The notes below the pieces were generated by a model that was not told where the DNA came from, did no database searches, and worked only from the letters and a program-made list of their open reading frames with translations. The position numbers and the translations under genes are program-made. From an uncultured virus (IMG/VR IMGVR_UViG_3300021197_000882) (lineage: Duplodnaviria > Heunggongvirae > Uroviricota > Caudoviricetes), in the IMG/VR virus record IMGVR_UViG_3300021197_000882: DNA of 64,000 nt. One strand, 5' to 3'. Below, piece after piece: positions 41,750 through 48,886 of this stretch. Position 1 is the stretch's first letter, and each line of letters starts with the position of its first letter.

Positions 41750-42005
41750 TATCCATTGCTTTTCTCATTGTTAGATAGAACTTACCGAAGTATAGTTCTA
41801 TATGTTCTTCTGTCATTCGACAACCCCTGCCGGAGTTTGGTGGCACCTTCATATTGTTTTCTAAAAAATACGAAAACAAATCTAATATTTCATGTGCCTT
41901 TTTAGAGTATTCCTCTAATGCTTTTGGTGTATGTTGCCTAAGTTGATTAGCACTTTCTAAACTTCTCTTGGCAAATTTCTTACTTATTCCTTTAGTTCCC
42001 GTCAT
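41730..42005 (-). CDS. hypothetical protein
   Basis: 91 aa coupled ORF. Confidence 0.6.
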   Translation of the reverse strand: MTGTKGISKKFAKRSLESANQLRQHTPKALEEYSKKAHEILDLFSYFLENNMKVPPNSGRGCRMTEEHIELYFGKFYLTMRKAMDSENNEL

Positions 42006-42198
42006 CTAATTCACTCCTTAGTATATTTAGAAGAGTTTTGGCTTCTTCTATGTTTAGCCTAATTCCCTTGTTAGTGGGTTTTTCATTTCTATGCCACCTA
42101 ATATCCATGACCTCTATGTTCCAGTAAACACCTCTTTTTACCAAAACTTCTTGATTAGCATCTCTAATCACCCTGCCTACTATTGGCATTTCACTCAC
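41992..42198 (-). CDS. PC4-like ssDNA-binding protein
   Basis: MDIRW...KPTNKGIRL signature. Confidence 0.8.
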   Translation of the reverse strand: MSEMPIVGRVIRDANQEVLVKRGVYWNIEVMDIRWHRNEKPTNKGIRLNIEEAKTLLNILRSELDDGN

Positions 42199-42592
42199 TT
42201 AACCACCCCTGTTTGAAAGTATCGAGTTCTTTTCTAGAAGTAAAATATCTAGGGGTATCAAGTTCATCTAGTCTATTTACTACCCAACAGGCACCGCCCA
42301 AAGATGATATCTGTACTACTTCATACTGACCATTATTTACCTGTATTATTTCTTTGGTGTTAATCTCAGGAACTAGACCATATTTCTTAGTTACTTCGCT
42401 TGCTATATCGTGTATATTTTCAACAACATATTTGATAATGTGCGCTCTTTGTATTGGTATCTTTGGTGCAACATCTATTGCTAAGTTACCTGTCATTTTA
42501 CAAACAACACATTTGTTGCCTTTACAAATAGGGCATTTGATTTGCGCTTTATGTGGCGCAGGTAGTGTTACTGTTACTGCTCTCTTCTTCAT
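42191..42592 (-). CDS. zinc-finger protein
   Basis: CPICKGNKCVVCKMTG. Confidence 0.7.
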   Translation of the reverse strand: MKKRAVTVTLPAPHKAQIKCPICKGNKCVVCKMTGNLAIDVAPKIPIQRAHIIKYVVENIHDIASEVTKKYGLVPEINTKEIIQVNNGQYEVVQISSLGGACWVVNRLDELDTPRYFTSRKELDTFKQGWLSE

Positions 42593-42683: not shown

Positions 42684-44213
42684 CTATGCCTCCGGCAATA
42701 ATACTGCTACATCAGTAGAAAAGAATAGTTGAGCAATAGACATAGCCGCTAAAAAACTACTCTTAGTTACCTTTACTGGGTCAAATACTCCCGCCTTAGA
42801 TAGATTTTCTACCTTATTAGTTAGGGCATTAAACCCATGACCTTTGGCAATATTCTTTCTAACCTGCTTATCATTAATATTGTCCATCAAATCATCTCTA
42901 CCACTATTTTCTAGTAGGGTTAGATAAGGTGCTTGTAATGCTTCTTTAAACCAATTGTATTTGGAAGGAATAGTATTACAAGCATGAATTAAAGTCAGTC
43001 CTCCACCAACTACAATGCCCTCCTCTAAAGCCGCTTTGGTAGCATTAAGAGCATCGTCTAATCTCTCTTTCTTTTCTCGCATTTCTATTGTTGAAGATGC
43101 CCCAACTTTAATTGTAGCAACTCCTCCCTTTAGTCTAGCAATACGAGTTTTGATTCTGTCTGCTTGATGTCCATGTACTTCATCAAGAGTTTTTGCTAAC
43201 TCTTGTATTCTGTCCTCAATAACTTCTTTGTCTGTAGGAGTACCGATAAAGGTGGTCTTCTCTTTTGTGATTATTACTTTATCACAAGTACCAAACGATT
43301 CATCGACAAATATAGTTGGTTTGTCCTTTGTCTCCGAGGCGAACAAGTAGCCGCCTAATACAGATTTTAAGTCTAATAACTCATCCAACTGAGCATCACC
43401 GAAGTTGGGTGCAAGAATTACTGAACAGTTTACAGTATTGTTAATGATGTTCATTAGTAGATTATTCATGGCTGAACCATCCATTCCTTTACATAGAATT
43501 AAAAGAGGTCTTCCTACATTAGTAGAATACTCTAACATTGGTATTAAGTCTTTAAAGGCTTGAAGAGATAGGTTAGACAGGAAAATTATAGGATTGTCAT
43601 AAACAACTCTACCTCCGTCGGTATTGCACATTAGATGGCTAAGATATCCTTCGTTAATTTCTAATCCTTCTCTTAGAGACAATTCTGTTTTGTAAGAATT
43701 AGATTCTTCTACGGTAATTATACCGCTTCTTCCTACCATGCCAACTGCTTCATTAATCAATGAACCCATTTCACTATCATTATTTGCCGCTATTGTGGCG
43801 ACATCTAGAACATCTGTATCTTTTACTTCTTTAGCACTGTTCATTAAGTTTTTAACAACCGTGTCTTTAAGTCCATTAAGAGTTTTGTTAAATGAATGAA
43901 TGTCCTTAGCATCTGCGTCTAACATTTTATGACATAACGCTTGAGCCAAAACACAAGCAGTTGTAGTTCCATCGCCTGTTTCATCTTGTGCTTGACTTGC
44001 TAAGTTTTGAACTAGTTGAACTCCCATATTAACATAAGGGTCTTCGTCGCTAATATACTTAGTAATAGTAACTCCGTCATTAATAATAACAGGAGGATTA
44101 CCTTGCAGTATAACTGTTTTGGCTTGTGGGCCAAGTGTAGGTTTTACTGTTTCTGCTACTAAATCTATTCCTTTCAAAATCTTTTCTTTTACTTCTGCTC
44201 CTTTAATTATCAT
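42684..44213 (-). CDS. groEL: group I chaperonin GroEL
   Basis: TLGP, NDGVTI, GDGTTT, APNFGD, ERLDDALNATKAALEEGIVVGGG, DPVKVT; no GGM tail. Confidence 0.96.
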   Translation of the reverse strand: MIIKGAEVKEKILKGIDLVAETVKPTLGPQAKTVILQGNPPVIINDGVTITKYISDEDPYVNMGVQLVQNLASQAQDETGDGTTTACVLAQALCHKMLDADAKDIHSFNKTLNGLKDTVVKNLMNSAKEVKDTDVLDVATIAANNDSEMGSLINEAVGMVGRSGIITVEESNSYKTELSLREGLEINEGYLSHLMCNTDGGRVVYDNPIIFLSNLSLQAFKDLIPMLEYSTNVGRPLLILCKGMDGSAMNNLLMNIINNTVNCSVILAPNFGDAQLDELLDLKSVLGGYLFASETKDKPTIFVDESFGTCDKVIITKEKTTFIGTPTDKEVIEDRIQELAKTLDEVHGHQADRIKTRIARLKGGVATIKVGASSTIEMREKKERLDDALNATKAALEEGIVVGGGLTLIHACNTIPSKYNWFKEALQAPYLTLLENSGRDDLMDNINDKQVRKNIAKGHGFNALTNKVENLSKAGVFDPVKVTKSSFLAAMSIAQLFFSTDVAVLLPEA

Positions 44214-44440
44214 TCGTCATCCTTCTCCTGTATTACTGCCATAATAGAATTCTTGTGTACTAAGAAATAGTCACCATAAGTATGTTGTTCGTGTGCTTGA
44301 GAATATAATACTCTCTTCCCTCTAAGTTTCTTATCGGGTGCATCTACTACTAGTCCTACATTACCTGCATCAATCATTAATCCACTTGCTAGTTTCTTTG
44401 TTGTTCTTTCTAGAACAACCCAATCTCCGTATGCTTTCAT
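44210..44440 (-). CDS. groES: co-chaperonin GroES-like
   Basis: GDWVVL...ASGLMI...IMAVI; directly upstream of groEL. Confidence 0.8.
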   Translation of the reverse strand: MKAYGDWVVLERTTKKLASGLMIDAGNVGLVVDAPDKKLRGKRVLYSQAHEQHTYGDYFLVHKNSIMAVIQEKDDE

Positions 44441-44964
44441 TCAATATTCCTCCCGTTTTCTTCCCATTGCTGAGTGTAATCTAGAAAGTTACCTTCTTGA
44501 TATACATCTAACTCATGAGGTCTATCTTGAGTCCAATGACCATAATGTTCTACTCCACCTAATACATAGGCTTCTTTCATAATGGGTTGCCAAACTTTGA
44601 CGGTTCCTATATCAGTTCCGCTAAAATAAGCACTACCGAAAGGATGAGTATGAATCCAACACTCAACAGGTAATTTCATTCCAACAGGATTTATTTGAAA
44701 GTCTACATATCCTGCTGTTCCAGTTGAAACATGAATATCTCTATTACCATCAATAACAACTTGAACTTCTAGATGAGGTAGAATCTCAGTAGAGGCGTAC
44801 CAAATAGATTCGAACATTTCTTTGATATCTTTTGTTTTATCATAACTATCTATGATATGCCTTTCTGCTAGAAACCTATGTTCCTTTAGTTCTTCCATAT
44901 ACTTTTCATATGAACTATCGTCATTATTTATTTCGTCAAAATATTTATCTTTCATTTTACTCAT
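44437..44964 (-). CDS. JAB/MPN+ (JAMM) metalloprotease
   Basis: E...WIHTHP...FSGTD = E-HxH-x7-S-x2-D motif. Confidence 0.88.
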   Translation of the reverse strand: MSKMKDKYFDEINNDDSSYEKYMEELKEHRFLAERHIIDSYDKTKDIKEMFESIWYASTEILPHLEVQVVIDGNRDIHVSTGTAGYVDFQINPVGMKLPVECWIHTHPFGSAYFSGTDIGTVKVWQPIMKEAYVLGGVEHYGHWTQDRPHELDVYQEGNFLDYTQQWEENGRNIE

Positions 44965-45518
44965 ACATTCACCACCTTAAAGTCGCATACTTCTTCATCG
45001 TTGAAGTATCTTTGAATCCACTGTGCGCCCATTCCTGCAATAGCAACTTGCATAAAATGAACTCCTTCATTACTTCCATCCCACGAATCTCCTTGACAAG
45101 AGAACGAACCGTCTTTACCGGCCAATAAACTTTCATACATCTTAATGTCGGCTTTATGGCTCACAAGTGCGGCATTCCTACCTTGCGCCCGTAGGTCTAA
45201 CCATTTAGTCTTTGTGTTATACATAGTTCTTCTAAGGCCTAAATTGTCTACACAACAAATAACCAAATCATATCCTTGCATTTGTTTTTCAGTTAGAATA
45301 GGGTACGGAGAAGAATTTACAATACTTTCATGTTTGCTAAACACGGCCTTTGCTTTGTTCGTCCCTACATCATCAGCAGTAAAGTTTTGATATGGTATAT
45401 TCTTTGTTTCTACAATATCGGGGTCTGCTACTGTTATGTTATATAATTCTACTTTATCTAAAAGTGGTATCAAGAAACTCCCAATACCACCTGCTCCAAT
45501 CACTAATACTTTTCTCAT
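44961..45518 (-). CDS. ThiF/E1-like ubiquitin-like-protein activating enzyme
   Basis: VIGAGGIGS, DPDIVETKNIPYQ, K, CCVDN..LR; candidate catalytic Cys in FSCQ. Confidence 0.9.
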   Translation of the reverse strand: MRKVLVIGAGGIGSFLIPLLDKVELYNITVADPDIVETKNIPYQNFTADDVGTNKAKAVFSKHESIVNSSPYPILTEKQMQGYDLVICCVDNLGLRRTMYNTKTKWLDLRAQGRNAALVSHKADIKMYESLLAGKDGSFSCQGDSWDGSNEGVHFMQVAIAGMGAQWIQRYFNDEEVCDFKVVNV

Positions 45519-45529
45519 TTTAATTCCTC

Positions 45530-45649
45530 CTAATAATATTTTTCGCTTTGCTCGTTATAGCCACAATCTTTACATTGGACTCCTTCATAATTTTCTGTCT
45601 CCCATTCAAACATTATTCCATCACATCTTGGACATCTATATTGTTTCAT
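45530..45649 (-). CDS. 39 aa zinc-ribbon protein (not in ORF track)
   Basis: MKQYRCPRCDG...QCKDCGY; GGTGA RBS. Confidence 0.65.
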   Translation of the reverse strand: MKQYRCPRCDGIMFEWETENYEGVQCKDCGYNEQSEKYY

Positions 45650-45651
45650 AT

Positions 45652-45861
45652 TTATTCACCTCTACTAATTATTCCTTTATCTAACAACTCTTGGTAGTTA
45701 TCCATCCAACTACCTAGAATCTTTATTGCTTCTCTTCGGCCTAAGCCAAACTCCTCTCTCAAATATGGAGTAGCACCAAACATATTGGTTACTCCACTTT
45801 GCCGTAATTCTTCTAAATACACATAGTATTCAGTCCATTCTTCTTTTATTTCTTTACTCAT
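45652..45861 (-). CDS. small helical protein (DUF5049-like)
   Basis: LEELRQSGVTNMFGA motif. Confidence 0.65.
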   Translation of the reverse strand: MSKEIKEEWTEYYVYLEELRQSGVTNMFGATPYLREEFGLGRREAIKILGSWMDNYQELLDKGIISRGE

Positions 45862-45870
45862 TTTAATTCC

Positions 45871-46704
45871 TCATATTAATTGTTTTCCTTTTATTTGTTC
45901 TGTGCTTACTAAACCTATTAGATTCAGTAATTTCTTGCCGGTGTTCCTTATCGTCCATCTAGTTAATCTAGACTTTTCGTGTATTACTTGGCAGGTAATA
46001 TCGCTTCTAAGATTTATATTTGCTGCTAACCAACATATAGAAGCGGGATAACTAGTAGGTATGTTAAATCCGCTTTCTTCTATTATAGGACAGAAGTATT
46101 CATGAACTTCTATTGCCTGTTTGGTAAACATAGCATCGCTCGCTATTATTGATGCTAGTCTTTCTATTTCATAGACAGGAGTTGGTCTTTTATTAACAGT
46201 GCCGTAGTGCTTCTTAATTTTCTTTACTATTTTTATTACCTTAGCCTTCTCACTATTGAATTCAATGGAGCATATATCACTGTAGTTCACAGGAGTATTA
46301 TTTTCTAATAAACAATAGTATACTACAGCACTTGCTCTGTCTTCATAAGTATCTCTAGTAGAGAATATATTCTTTTTATACAAGGCCATATAGATTCCTT
46401 CGCATCTGAGTTTTAGTGACTCAGCACTACTAAAGTTAGCCAATAGTATTTTACAGAAAGAAAGCCCTTGCAGTATATGACTAGGAGTAGAATTATAATA
46501 TCTTCTACCTTTACCAATGGTAATAGAACCCAAGGTTCCTTTATCCGGAGAGTGGTTGCTCCCACCTCTAACAGTTTCTTCGAATATTTCTGTTATTATG
46601 ACTAGCCCACACTCATCGCATACCATTTCGCCTAACCTTTCATCGAAAGATATTGCTTTACTATTGCACTCATTGCAGAAATTTATCGACTCTGTTAGCA
46701 TCAA
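45871..46704 (-). CDS. tfb: transcription initiation factor B (TFB/TFIIB)-like protein
   Basis: CNEC...DERLGEMVCDECGLVI zinc ribbon, LGS, two degenerate cyclin-like repeats. Confidence 0.82.
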   Translation of the reverse strand: MMLTESINFCNECNSKAISFDERLGEMVCDECGLVIITEIFEETVRGGSNHSPDKGTLGSITIGKGRRYYNSTPSHILQGLSFCKILLANFSSAESLKLRCEGIYMALYKKNIFSTRDTYEDRASAVVYYCLLENNTPVNYSDICSIEFNSEKAKVIKIVKKIKKHYGTVNKRPTPVYEIERLASIIASDAMFTKQAIEVHEYFCPIIEESGFNIPTSYPASICWLAANINLRSDITCQVIHEKSRLTRWTIRNTGKKLLNLIGLVSTEQIKGKQLI

Positions 46705-47881
46705 TTATTTCTCCTGTAAATGCCTTGTCATCCAATCTACATTTGTTCTCATCTATCCCACTTAGATAGCCTCGAATTGTACTTACTCTCTTAAGCATAA
46801 GAATGTCGTTAAGAGTAGCAAAGGCTCTAGCACACATTTGGTCTCCTAGTGGAGCATCTTTAGACATATTATCTATACAAATCGGCCCTTTCCATGTAAG
46901 AACTGTATTATAGATAGGCTCTCCTTCTTCATCTTCACTCGCATAGTCCTCTTTAGTGCCTAAGACATAAGTAGAAACTCTTTGAGTACCTGAAGTTGCG
47001 CCGTTATCTCTAATAAACCAATCATATCCTTTTCCTCTAACTAACATACCATCTAGTTTCTCTCCGGATTTTTTGTAGACCAAGGTTATTTTATCCGAGA
47101 ACTGTTTTGCTAAATCTTGGACTAACTCTTTTGCTCTTTTCTCAATCAAGTCAGCAGTTCTGTTTTGTTCTAAGAACGGTATCATCAATTCCATTTCACT
47201 ATGAGTTGGTACTCTACCAACGGTGTCTAAAAATAATTTTTTTGGTGAACAATACTTCCATTTTCCCGTCTTCTTTCCGTGTAAGAAGAAGGAACAAAAG
47301 GAGTTTATCTCTTTTGCTTTCATAGTACCCCAAATACCATCGCTTAATTCAATGGCATATTCGTCAGAGCCTATTTGTTGAACATTGAGCCTTACTTCTA
47401 CTCTTTCAAAATCCTTGTAGAAATTATAGGGCATCTTGTTCTCTAAGACATATCTAATATCTTCGGAAATATTCAGTGATTTAAGTAAAGTTCTTTGAAG
47501 TTCTAGTTTATTGTCCGTCCAAAGAGATTTGATTAGAACTCTAGCGAGTACACTAAGCATATGATTAAAACTCACAGCCTTGCCATTCATATAGTATCTA
47601 GACGAACCTTCTAAAAGAATAGGTACGGAGCCTATTTTAAAGTACATTTCTTCCAGTCTTTTTAGTCTACCCTTTCCTAAATGTTCTTTGAAGTAATCCT
47701 TTACTCCATCTAAAACAGGGTCTTTGCTTCTACTGTTTCTAATACTAATTGTACTACCACGCCACAAATAGGCAGAACCTTCCCATGTTATTACTGTTTT
47801 TCCTAGAACATCATTACTGTCGTCCGGAGTTGGTATTACTATATTTGCTTCTCTTTCTATTTCTATTTCCATTATAATCAC
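46670..47881 (-). CDS. hypothetical protein; C-terminal GPICID resembles an E2 catalytic-Cys context
   Basis: 403 aa ORF is solid; the E2 resemblance rests on one short motif and its neighbours. Confidence 0.6.
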   Translation of the reverse strand: MIIMEIEIEREANIVIPTPDDSNDVLGKTVITWEGSAYLWRGSTISIRNSRSKDPVLDGVKDYFKEHLGKGRLKRLEEMYFKIGSVPILLEGSSRYYMNGKAVSFNHMLSVLARVLIKSLWTDNKLELQRTLLKSLNISEDIRYVLENKMPYNFYKDFERVEVRLNVQQIGSDEYAIELSDGIWGTMKAKEINSFCSFFLHGKKTGKWKYCSPKKLFLDTVGRVPTHSEMELMIPFLEQNRTADLIEKRAKELVQDLAKQFSDKITLVYKKSGEKLDGMLVRGKGYDWFIRDNGATSGTQRVSTYVLGTKEDYASEDEEGEPIYNTVLTWKGPICIDNMSKDAPLGDQMCARAFATLNDILMLKRVSTIRGYLSGIDENKCRLDDKAFTGEIIDANRVDKFLQ

Positions 47882-47992
47882 ATCATATATACATTCTTTT
47901 TTTCTTTATCACAAACTATGTGACATTCGTTTTTTATTTCTATCATGTTCGTGAGTTGGCCACCGCAAACTCTACATCTAGTTGCTATTTTT

Positions 47993-48379
47993 CTATTTCT
48001 TGTGCTTTGTTGATATTTCGGGTCTTTTTCTTTCAATTATTTCACCTTCCATTTTTATTTTAGTTTCACAAATAATACAATTATCATTACAATTATGGTT
48101 ATGATAATCTAACATTTGCTTAGTTTCTTTTACTTGTTTAATTAAGTATTTCTTGAATCCGATGTCTATTGCTTCTTGTATATTATACAACTCATCTAAT
48201 CTACAAAAATCATAATATAAATTAGATATTTTGCTAGCATCGGTATCGAATATATCTTTAAATTCATCAATCACATTGATTGAGTTCTTCATAATTATTT
48301 TACTTTCCATAGAGAAGTCTCTCATAATGAAAAGCATTATTGTTAGTGCTTCGTTATATTTTTTAACGAGGCTAGGCAC
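47993..48379 (-). CDS. hypothetical protein
   Basis: GGAGG RBS, GTG start, HNHNCNDNCIIC cluster. Confidence 0.6.
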   Translation of the reverse strand: MPSLVKKYNEALTIMLFIMRDFSMESKIIMKNSINVIDEFKDIFDTDASKISNLYYDFCRLDELYNIQEAIDIGFKKYLIKQVKETKQMLDYHNHNCNDNCIICETKIKMEGEIIERKRPEISTKHKK

Positions 48380-48572
48380 AACTAGTCCTCCTGTAATGTA
48401 AACAACTTTTCTAAGGTTGTTATTATTTTTACACCCCTATCGACATCCTTTTGTGTCAATCTATCGGTATGCAACATTTTCTTAAGTTCCTTGAACGAAT
48501 CTGCAACTATTTGCCTATTATTCATAATTGTTTTGAGTAGGATAAGGAACATAAACCTATCGTTTTGTGAGA

Positions 48573-48602
48573 GGTAGACCCAAGCCCCTTTATGGGTCTA
48601 CC
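48573..48602 (-). terminator. 10-bp hairpin downstream of ubiquitin-like gene (terminator or processing site)
   Basis: GGTAGACCCA / TGGGTCTACC perfect inverted repeat. Confidence 0.55.
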
Positions 48603-48633
48603 CCTCTGAGGGAAAGAACAGATAATTACCTAA

Positions 48634-48840
48634 TCAAAGGTTGCCTCCAACAATAGCGTTTACTAGGTCTACTGTCTCAACAGCATCCCAGTTAATTTCG
48701 GCTATATCTTCTCTACTTACCATTTCTCCATCAACGAAGCACCAGTGTGTAGGGTGAGTCTCTATCTGTTCAATTATGCTAGTAGATTCTAGCATTAAGT
48801 CAGTGTGTCCTGTATCATTCATTATTCTTAATCGTATCAT
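48634..48840 (-). CDS. ubiquitin-like beta-grasp protein (ThiS/SAMP-like) with GG-NL C-terminus
   Basis: 68 aa; FVDGEMV...VDLVNAIVGG-NL; GGAG RBS and own TATA box. Confidence 0.82.
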   Translation of the reverse strand: MIRLRIMNDTGHTDLMLESTSIIEQIETHPTHWCFVDGEMVSREDIAEINWDAVETVDLVNAIVGGNL

Positions 48841-48878
48841 ATTTTCATCTCCTGTATTTGTTCTCTCTTCTCTCCACT

Positions 48879-48886
48879 ATTTAAAC
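48879..48886 (-). promoter_or_regulatory. archaeal TATA-box promoter for the ubiquitin-like gene
   Basis: TAGTTTAAATA on - strand; same 11-mer at 54961-54971 upstream of ORF 54938. Confidence 0.6.

Follow-up and report, generated by a model that had tools for sequence, protein, structure and literature searches.

Layout of the locus

The genes described here lie in a 64,000-nucleotide (nt) stretch of DNA from an uncultured virus (IMG/VR record IMGVR_UViG_3300021197_000882), and this whole stretch is referred to as the window. Its minus strand carries a predicted ubiquitin-like protein system of three parts: a ubiquitin-like protein (Ubl) of 68 amino acids (aa), an E1-like (activating) adenylating enzyme of 185 aa and a JAMM metalloprotease (JAB) of 175 aa, listed with the surrounding features in Table 1. 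The three open reading frames (ORFs) lie where a first-pass annotation of the window had placed them, and their features go beyond chance, as judged from a ThiF domain match of 55.6 bits, from the beta-grasp and JAMM structure models and from invariant motifs.

Table 1. Positions of the three genes and of other features of the region in the window
Feature	Positions	Strand	Basis or remark
Ubl precursor, 68 aa, predicted beta-grasp, ends NAIVGG-NL, no lysine	48634..48840	-	ORF and structure model
E1-like adenylating enzyme, 185 aa, starts MRKVLVIGAGGIGS, has SFSCQ	44961..45518	-	Pfam ThiF
JAMM/MPN+ metalloprotease, 175 aa, has HTHPFGSAYFSGTD	44437..44964	-	Motif and structure model
Putative archaeal TATA-like element TTTAAATA	48878..48885	-	Some 40 nt ahead of the Ubl start codon, by reading
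Stem-loop of 14 base pairs, begins 28 nt past the Ubl stop	48569..48606	-	-27.3 kcal/mol
Conserved 403-aa ORF between Ubl and E1	46670..47881	-	80/80 Ubl-bearing loci
TFB/TFIIB-like protein, 277 aa, zinc ribbon	45871..46704	-	Pfam Zn_Ribbon_TF 5.6e-7, 29.4 bits vs cut-off 29
39-aa zinc-ribbon ORF, CPRC...CKDC	45530..45649	-	
GroEL and 76-aa ORF	42684..44440	-	Directly downstream of JAB
76-aa ORF	44210..44440	-	Just before GroEL
133-aa ORF, N-terminal zinc knuckle CPICKGNKCVVCK	42191..42592	-	
68-aa PC4-like ORF	41992..42198	-	Downstream of GroEL, past the 133-aa ORF

The E1 and JAB genes are directly coupled, as had been read at first, with the stop of the former and the start of the latter sharing 4 nt (ATGA). 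The same annotation took all three genes for a single transcription unit, and this part of it was not confirmed. Specifically, the stem-loop that follows the Ubl stop has a z score of -3.12, with 0 of 200 shuffled sequences folding as well, and Ubl is set off from E1 by about 3.1 kb that hold five or six further ORFs (2.3-7 kb in relatives). Because of this intervening stem-loop and the several ORFs, Ubl, E1 and JAB can be said to share a strand, and a shared transcript is unsupported.

The ubiquitin-like protein

The AlphaFold model of the Ubl, computed from an alignment of 18 sequences, reaches a predicted local distance difference test (pLDDT) score of 85.3 and runs strand-strand-helix-strand-strand-helix-strand, with residues 65-68 disordered. 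When the model was compared to the PDB with Foldseek, the top 50 matches were all ubiquitin, NEDD8 or ISG15 (probability 0.91-0.99), the best having an E-value of 3.9e-3, a probability of 0.99 and a template modelling (TM) score of 0.47. The VIA structure search, which does not depend on Foldseek, gave a Z score of 5.3 for MoaD (6jc0_A, 25% identity) and for the bacterial Ubl 8tyz_B, with Fubi, ISG15, CysO, TtuB and SAMP1 among further matches down to Z 4.1 and MOCS2A also listed. These Z scores are modest, as would be expected at 68 residues, yet the list of matches is uniform. The models thereby point firmly to a beta-grasp fold, which is what the first-pass annotation had proposed.

At the level of sequence the protein went unrecognized in Pfam (including ThiS/MoaD), PHROG, PADLOC and NCBIfam, its profile met nothing under an E-value of 0.5 among PDB sequences, and a word-index search returned only 9 close relatives. 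A Pfam match to PinA-inhibitor (19.7 bits against a cut-off of 27) was taken as chance.

The Gly-Gly near the C-terminus, whose absence from homologues would have spoken against the first-pass annotation, is invariant in alignments of 18, 26 and 80 relatives (hence in 80/80 loci), AIVGG being conserved in the 80 viral loci, and it is invariant in the phage-clade Ubls described below too; when both viral Ubl clades are taken together, G11, G65 and G66 are the only invariant columns. Across the 80 loci, 16 have no residue after the Gly-Gly, 1 has one and 63 have two, in 19 different dipeptides. Such a pattern, with the Gly-Gly fixed and the short tail free to vary, marks out a Ubl precursor that undergoes processing.

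The E1-like enzyme

The match of the 185-aa protein to Pfam ThiF (PF00899; cut-off 28.1 bits, E-value 5.4e-15) spans residues 3-141. Its Gly-rich loop reads GAGGIGS in the window, and it also contains YQNF and S140-C141-Q142. In 26 close and 15 distant sequences alike, the invariant positions are GxGGIGS, D32, D34, K39, Y43-Q44, F46, K55, D91, R96, D108, R110, G113 and S140-C141-Q142, and the SCQ and nucleotide-binding residues are kept down to about 30% identity in viral and phage clades. Matches to equivalog models are far weaker than their cut-offs, with 31.8 bits for UbaA (450), 43.3 for ThiF (275) and 26.8 for MoeB (266), next to 44.2 bits for a PRTRC ThiF model (145), and the equivalog matches span the N-terminal ~100 aa only. 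Among PDB sequences, the profile matches 9egc, Cap2, UBA5, MccB (2e-7), the SUMO and NEDD8 E1s, MoeB and ThiF.

The protein begins at the first Rossmann strand and stops ~45 aa past Cys141, and therefore has neither the N-terminal helices nor the C-terminal Ubl-binding/zinc domain. It is best described as a predicted minimal E1, in which Cys141 would be the equivalent of the crossover-loop catalytic cysteine. The best solved match of the enzyme is the group of PDB entries 9egb/9egc/9egd, named 'THIF-type NAD/FAD binding fold domain-containing protein' and comprising 7 and 14 chains; a literature search for a paper describing 9EGB/9EGC/9EGD found none.

The metalloprotease

In JAB the motif E..HxHx7SxxD is made up of E66, H105, H107, S115 and D118, all invariant in alignments of 20 and of 40 sequences. 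Its model (pLDDT 86.2) consists of an N-terminal helical hairpin and the catalytic core. The VIA search matched it to PfJAMM1 (5ld9_A, Z 7.6, root-mean-square deviation 3.2, 105 aligned), RadC (7.4), Cap3 (9ild_A, 7.0), Rpn11 (6.7), AF2198 (6.4) and a bacterial deubiquitinase (8tyy_B, 6.1), and the top Foldseek matches are JAMM/MPN proteins as well (best E-value 2.2e-3). The Pfam Prok-JAB match stays under its cut-off (17.9 bits against 25, E-value 0.003). The protein is thus confidently modelled with a JAMM/MPN fold, though its sequence is very divergent.

The first-pass annotation had explained the presence of JAB by the Asn-Leu extension that follows the Gly-Gly. This is right only in part, since 16 of the 80 relatives end at the Gly-Gly and keep JAB all the same, so that the protease must have more to do than tail trimming.

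The C-terminus of JAB is EEE in most of 41 related sequences. Glu is the last residue of 22 of the 84 coding ORFs of the window (EEE in 3), with an overall Glu content of 7.5%, and such ends probably arise as a side effect of ribosome-binding sequences rich in purines or of stop-start overlaps with the next gene. A specific docking signal at the JAB C-terminus was rejected because so many window ORFs end in Glu.

Distribution in viruses and phages

The window encodes a tail tube protein, a split family-B DNA polymerase, an RFC-like clamp loader, an ATP-dependent ligase, ERCC4 and PD-(D/E)XK nucleases, a UvrD helicase, a TFIIB-like protein and GroEL (Pfam and PHROG). Its guanine-plus-cytosine (GC) content is ~0.35, a tRNA scan of it found none, and its relatives in IMG/VR are contigs of ~90-97 kb. 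Magroviruses are head-tailed viruses that have been assigned to Marine Group II (Poseidoniales) archaea (PMC5434244). Since gene content and relatives fit the description in the available text of that report, we assign the window to a head-tailed archaeal virus of the magrovirus type; the Marine Group II host is taken over from the same text (PMC5434244), where the assignment was published for magroviruses and not for this window.

Co-occurrence of the three genes across related viruses, which the first-pass annotation had put forward as a test, was counted in the best 80 of 194 Ubl-encoding stretches, selected by the Ubl profile alone. Wherever at least 9 kb of downstream sequence was present, E1 and JAB followed on the same strand (73/73 loci), E1 at 2.3-7 kb and JAB at 3.3-8.7 kb from Ubl. 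The remaining 7 loci are cut by a contig end: 3 are without both genes, 2 have E1 only and 2 have both. When loci were selected by E1 instead (n=48), JAB was found by tblastn in 45, with two of the misses at contig ends and the third (L047) having a divergent JAB directly upstream, and Ubl was found in 25; 17 loci have no upstream sequence, and 3 complete genomes have Ubl further upstream.

Phage-like contigs of 60-230 kb were reached by way of a remote E1 relative with 34% identity. A sigma-70-type factor and a PolA-type polymerase were identified in these contigs by reading the ORFs and not by a Pfam scan. Ubl, JAB and E1 are contiguous in a series of the contigs (L047, L053, L055, L059, L060, L061, L064, L070, L071 and L072), and their Ubls end in the Gly-Gly itself, in one or three further residues, or in a fusion via the Gly-Gly to a domain of 150-160 aa. 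By hhalign, the viral and phage Ubl families match over 68 columns (probability 98.6, E-value 1e-15), and for the JAB families only the motif is aligned (probability 28%). A third subclade of minimal E1s, with the motif SSCQNPFQI, was seen in L063, L073 and L074 (E1 at ~3001-3573, 3929-4498 and 3995-4564, respectively); no Ubl or JAB lies within 3-4 kb of these, and an ORF of 775-792 aa is always next.

A profile search against 1.84 billion representative sequences returned 419 clusters at E<=1e-3, of which 141 had E<=1e-10. These include tandem Ubls of two and three repeats, each ending in VGG and a short linker. Fusions were also found, namely of Ubl-GG to a C-terminal domain of 150-300 aa (L061, L064, P0026, P0033, P0099), of Ubl-Ubl-E1 (P0027, L175), and of E1-JAB in proteins of 409-422 aa encoded after a Ubl gene (L194-L197). 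No IMG/VR relatives of the poly-Ubl P0010 or of the fusion P0027 were found. Taken together, the co-occurrence, the contiguity in phages and the domain fusions support a functional link between Ubl, E1 and JAB.

Cellular homologues and phylogeny

Members of the poly-Ubl and fusion clusters are named by NCBI as proteins of Candidatus Poseidoniaceae or Poseidoniales metagenome-assembled genomes (MAGs), some from contigs of 1.4-1.66 Mb; 'host lineage' below refers to these cluster names and to the published virus-host assignment. A survey of 401 genomes of one archaeal phylum, with thresholds of E<=1e-20 for the minimal E1 and E<=1e-8 for the magrovirus-type JAB, found Ubl in 56 (mostly as 2-3 copies in one frame), E1 in 60 and JAB in 59. 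Every Ubl-positive genome is also E1-positive (56/56), and E1 and JAB occur together in 58; the exceptions are 4 E1-positive genomes without Ubl, 2 without JAB and 1 genome with JAB only, all of them incomplete MAGs. The cellular E1 adjoins JAB in 26 of 27 loci, the exception stopping at a contig edge. One contig of 2.06 Mb has poly-Ubl at 111 kb and E1-JAB at 507 kb. The genes around them are ordinary cellular ones, namely a GDP-mannose dehydratase, a GST, a fatty-acid oxidation enzyme, glycosyltransferases and a wyosine radical-SAM enzyme, the neighbourhood is syntenic in a second genome, and GC is 0.48-0.53. MAG bins may hold viral contigs, but the 2.06-Mb contig and the cellular synteny argue against this for the core result.

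In two host-lineage genomes the two-repeat poly-Ubl gene (L172:8124-8732 in G235; L173:8200-8637 in G047) has a conserved neighbourhood, and in both contexts it is flanked by a 2-thiouracil desulfurase (PF04463) plus DUF1722 protein, together with an AAA/RFC-like ATPase. This may hint at a tie with the metabolism of thio-nucleobases or with an unfoldase.

A tree of E1 with 74 rows (quick IQ-TREE, support by the SH-aLRT test only, root placed on the phage clade by choice) falls into three groups: a viral one of 36 rows with support 98, a cellular one of 27 with support 100 and a phage one of 11 with support 96. The viral and cellular E1s are set apart by long stems, at 2.4 and 2.9 substitutions per site. 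The deep branching order is unsure, given the long branches. The three clean groups and the long stems indicate that the viral set is old and monophyletic, with no recent capture. Since the likely host order has a homologous system, a point absent from the first-pass annotation, the virus is not bringing in a foreign pathway, but keeps an old, separate copy of one that is present in its hosts too.

Function

The best reading of these genes is a self-contained Ubl tagging system that works without an E2 (conjugating enzyme), in the manner of SAMP/UbaA (SAMP, small archaeal modifier protein) or TtuB, and we regard this as reasonably likely. More specifically, (i) the 68-aa beta-grasp protein would be made as a precursor with the AIVGG-NL end, (ii) the JAMM protease would take off the two-residue tail and so bare the Gly-Gly, (iii) the 185-aa E1 would use ATP to adenylate the Ubl C-terminus, with transfer onto Cys141 being probable from the chemistry of the family, (iv) the activated Ubl would pass to lysines of viral or host proteins without a dedicated E2, as with SAMP/UbaA and TtuB/TtuC, and (v) the same JAMM enzyme would make the tag reversible. 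Cys141 would carry the Ubl as a thioester or support a persulfide, and JAB would also cut Ubl repeats and fusions apart after the Gly-Gly. The system may also do both, tagging and sulfur transfer, as SAMP, Urm1 and TtuB do.

Conjugation is favoured because homologues come as tandem polyubiquitin-like precursors, because no sulfurtransferase or acceptor was found, and because a self-contained set occurs in viruses of two domains; the retention of JAB in lineages whose Ubl has no tail was likewise counted for conjugation over sulfur transfer. Tandem Ubl precursors are, as far as is known, typical of stoichiometric modifiers and not of catalytic carriers. Sulfur-transfer and cofactor families turned up in none of the 86 scanned window ORFs, in keeping with the first reading of the neighbourhood, and Rhodanese, PAPS_reduct, ATP_bind_3 and Aminotran_5 were found in 0 of 3 complete relatives, with controls positive in 13-14 of 14 genomes; enzymes of the host might nevertheless fill this part.

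Several points weigh against such a tagging pathway. The possible E2 of the first-pass annotation could not be recovered: no UQ_con or Prok-E2 match appeared among the 86 window ORFs or 16 members of the 403-aa family (Pfam), none among the E1/Ubl neighbours in scans of Pfam, PHROGs, PADLOC and NCBIfam, and Atlas gave no usable match for the 403-aa and 128-aa ORFs, with 0 matches of the 403-aa family profile to PDB sequences. A UQ_con search of the 3 complete relatives also gave 0 matches, but its control was 0/14 genomes, so that it is uninformative. An E2 recognizable by its fold alone may still be present. An E3 (ligase) was not found either. Ubls have 0 or 1 lysine each, and chains of them are therefore unlikely. 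On the side of the enzyme, solved E1s can be aligned to no more than its first ~100-130 aa, and by comparison with 9egc an invariant Tyr43 takes the place of the Arg that is usual in the NxxRQ motif; being small, missing both ends and having this Tyr, the E1 may therefore differ in its chemistry. Cys141 is taken by us to be the crossover-loop cysteine by the spacing in MoeB/ThiF, in a region unaligned to any solved E1, and all the catalytic steps set out above, like the targets, are inferred.

A predicted complex of the two proteins was another check raised at the outset. E1 with Ubl residues 1-66 scored 0.36, against 0.03 for the best of 3 controls, and the runs agreed in their contacts to at least 95% with partner pLDDT of at least 82. 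The mark that it passes was also passed by 116 of the solved complexes (n=157) and by 2 of the mismatched pairs (n=215), and passing scores <=0.60 belong to 18 of the 157 solved complexes and to both of the passing mismatches. The prediction thus lends weak support to the E1-Ubl pairing, and since E1-Ubl complexes have already been solved, the pass may reflect likeness only.

A role as sulfur carrier is the first alternative, and an unlikely one. Here the Ubl, trimmed by JAB and adenylated by E1, would be turned into a thiocarboxylate by a host sulfurtransferase and hand on its sulfur, the acceptor being a small molecule, a tRNA or a nucleotide, with any protein conjugates being side products (cf. 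QbsE/QbsD/QbsC, CysO/Mec+, ThiS/ThiF, MoaD/MoeB, TtuB/TtuC). A Ubl with masked Gly-Gly, a JAB and an E1 also make up known sulfur carriers, QbsE/QbsD/QbsC (thioquinolobactin) and CysO/Mec+, and this, too, counts against tagging, as do the name 'sulfur carrier protein ThiS' given automatically by JGI to a related cluster of two-repeat Ubls and the PF04463 desulfurase beside poly-Ubl in 2/2 host-lineage contexts. MoaD as the top VIA match of the Ubl, with CysO, TtuB and MOCS2A also listed, and the similarly weak scores of the E1 to the ThiF, MoeB and UbaA models would fit a sulfur carrier as well. However, neither a rhodanese, a cysteine desulfurase nor a PAPS-reductase/TtuA-type or other acceptor was found in the window or in 3/3 complete relatives, the E1 has no rhodanese domain, the Ubl has no Pfam ThiS/MoaD match, homologues have tandem poly-Ubl precursors, and a host acceptor enzyme would need to take a very divergent carrier.

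It is more improbable still that the viral Ubl, E1 or JAB acts as a decoy, competitor or deconjugase against the homologous Ubl system of the host, whose poly-Ubl, E1 and JAB might be antiviral like bacterial Bil or CBASS Cap2/Cap3. A homologous system does exist in the likely host order (56-60 of the 401 phylum genomes, with clusters named Poseidoniales/Poseidoniaceae), JAB is kept in the 16 of 80 loci where there is no tail to trim, and its model matches Cap3 and the bacterial Ubl deubiquitinase. But the presence of all three parts in 73/73 loci is a better fit to a working pathway than to a single-protein antagonist, the stems between viral and cellular E1s suggest that the two systems are separate and perhaps orthogonal, the cellular E1-JAB pair has housekeeping genes around it and no defence island, and PADLOC has no match for Ubl or JAB. 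That no tagging takes place at all, with the Ubl being an assembly or chaperone-like factor freed by JAB, or the E1 carrying out MccB-like nucleotidylation or cyclization, is very improbable: MccB among the profile matches, the atypically minimal E1, the Ubl-GG fusions in which JAB would simply free two proteins and the Ubl-JAB precedent proposed for lambda tail assembly (tail assembly protein I with the JAB of protein K; PMC1779556) speak for it, but the genes lie in the replication/early block outside the tail module, the SCQ cysteine and adenylation residues are invariant, and free-standing, repeated Ubls with an invariant Gly-Gly fit activation of the C-terminus for transfer.

For the tagging system, redirection of the host proteasome had been offered in the first-pass annotation as a possible purpose. 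As a general purpose this is unlikely, because homologous cassettes occur in phage-like contigs with a sigma-70-type factor and a PolA-type polymerase; in an archaeal host it would be possible.

Relation to described systems

Cells are well known to use triads of Ubl, E1 and JAB, be it as sulfur carriers, for sampylation in archaea or for antiviral defence in bacteria (Bil, Bub, CBASS). For viruses to carry and stably inherit the full set would reverse the usual roles, in that the tag would be owned by the virus and not by the host. Marine Group II archaea are uncultured and belong to the archaea that are most abundant at the ocean surface. As a tentative wider view, these archaea and their viruses may share an E2-less, polyubiquitin-like tagging system built on an E1 of ~190 aa, of which the magroviruses would keep their own, possibly orthogonal copy for infection, while the phage cassettes would make virus-run tagging widespread in both prokaryotic domains. 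Tandem poly-Ubl with a minimal E1 in hosts would amount to a simple new model of ubiquitin-type signalling without E2 and E3, and with parts of 68, 185 and 175 aa the use of Ubl tags by prokaryotic viruses would be approachable at the bench.

Prokaryotic combinations of Ubl, E1 and JAB have been described since the report PMC1779556. The SAMP system comprises SAMP1-3, the E1 UbaA and the desampylase HvJAMM1 (PMC4443979, PMC4895103). As in Haloferax volcanii, the viral set has a beta-grasp modifier with Gly-Gly, a single E1-like enzyme, no E2 or E3, a JAMM protease and an archaeal host, and the best structural match of the JAB model is the SAMP-type PfJAMM1. Unlike in the SAMP system, the set is virus-encoded, with tandem poly-Ubl genes as its cellular homologues; the E1 has 185 aa against ~270 aa for UbaA (and 31.8 bits against the UbaA cut-off of 450), without the N-terminal helices and the C-terminal domain, and the Ubl has no detectable sequence kinship with ThiS/MoaD.

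The Bil (BilABCD), Bub and CBASS Cap2/Cap3 systems likewise encode Ubl, E1 and JAB deubiquitinase together, and the likeness extends to the Ubl (8tyz_B), to the JAB (Cap3 9ild_A and 8tyy_B) and to the E1 N-terminus, which matches Cap2 and the E1-E2 models of PADLOC. Those systems, however, have an E2 or an E1-E2 fusion, none of which was found in the virus, and serve in cellular antiviral defence, whereas the present set is carried by a virus and PADLOC is blank for its Ubl and JAB. Sulfur-carrier triads also have a beta-grasp protein with Gly-Gly, in some cases with a tail cut by JAB before E1-like adenylation (PMC1779556), and differ in that no sulfurtransferase, rhodanese domain or acceptor was found in the virus; compared with ThiF/MoeB, the E1 lies far under the model cut-offs, and homologues of the Ubl come as poly-Ubl precursors.

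Among viruses, ThiF/E1 homologues and a proposed use of host ubiquitin have been reported for the Asgard virus 'Nidhogg', the available text giving E1 homologues only, unlike the full set here (10.1101/2021.07.29.454249). A further case is that of crAss-like phages, where in crAss001 a ThiF protein (gp76) and a metalloprotease (gp77) are adjacent in the replication module, and likewise in DAC15; the window E1 has 27% identity to the DAC15 protein over 97% of the E1 length, but the crAss proteins are about twice as long. No Ubl with Gly-Gly was identified beside the crAss ThiF/JAB pair, no in-depth search having been made. The pairs of these cultured Bacteroides phages (crAss001 gp77-gp76, L066:1756-4154; DAC15 gp89-gp88, L065:2051-4160) match Prok-JAB at 4.9e-4 and 6.5e-5, both under the cut-off, and the ThiF domain at 8e-16 and 2e-14, and GenBank names the ThiF-domain protein 'thiamine biosynthesis protein'.

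Literature searches, which did not extend to subscription papers, found none pairing 'magrovirus' with 'ubiquitin' or joining 'Poseidoniales', 'virus' and 'ThiF'. Ubiquitin, ThiF and JAB are absent from the main texts, as distinct from the supplements, of the magrovirus papers PMC5434244, PMC11706807 and PMC10160649, and a jumbo-phage survey (PMC7824862) has no JAB or ThiF. One single-cell genome of Marine Group II has been described with a different, eukaryote-like set of deubiquitinase and RING proteins (PMC4327156).

What sets the present system apart is the predicted 185-aa E1, the lack of any E2 found, a Ubl without sequence link to ThiS/MoaD or ubiquitin, and carriage by viruses alongside a diverged cellular copy with poly-Ubl genes. 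New here are the phage-like Ubl-JAB-E1 cassettes, the diverged homologues in genomes of the likely host order and the three deep E1 clades.

Other genes of the neighbourhood

TFB and GroES/GroEL had been named as candidate partners of the tagging enzymes, and they turned out to be conserved neighbours only, as members of a gene block that is conserved as such. TFB and the 403-aa ORF are both present in 80/80 Ubl-bearing loci; the NCBIfam TFIIB match of the 277-aa protein covers its N-terminus only. GroEL is well recognized (Pfam 2.5e-44, PHROG 1.3e-110, NCBIfam 4e-126). The 76-aa ORF before it, found in 41 of 80 loci by tblastn, had been called GroES, and this was rejected: Pfam gave no Cpn10 match, and its profile met only CarD among PDB entries (E-value 0.23). 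Magroviruses probably lack GroES, according to the available text of PMC5434244.

The 403-aa ORF has an invariant Cys335 within a GPICIDN motif and gave 0 matches in Pfam, PHROG, PADLOC, NCBIfam, PDB sequences and Atlas. Its C-terminal part has weak matches (E-values 4e-5 to 6e-4) in 3 of 5 host-lineage genomes (L214:1462-2157 in G247; L215; L216), and in 2 of these 3 the homologue lies ~9-10 kb from a canonical ThiF-family gene of ~400-440 aa, which may be coincidence.

The 39-aa zinc-ribbon ORF stops 11 nt short of the E1 start, with GGAGG coming after it; this ORF was considered as the missing zinc domain of the E1 and rejected, as it is kept in only 2 of 46 loci. The 133-aa ORF with the zinc knuckle has no Pfam family match and is, with 71-95% identity among relatives, the most conserved protein of the neighbourhood, above GroEL. 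The 68-aa ORF beyond it has a sub-threshold match to the PC4/p15 single-stranded DNA-binding transcription coactivator (21.5 bits against a cut-off of 25).

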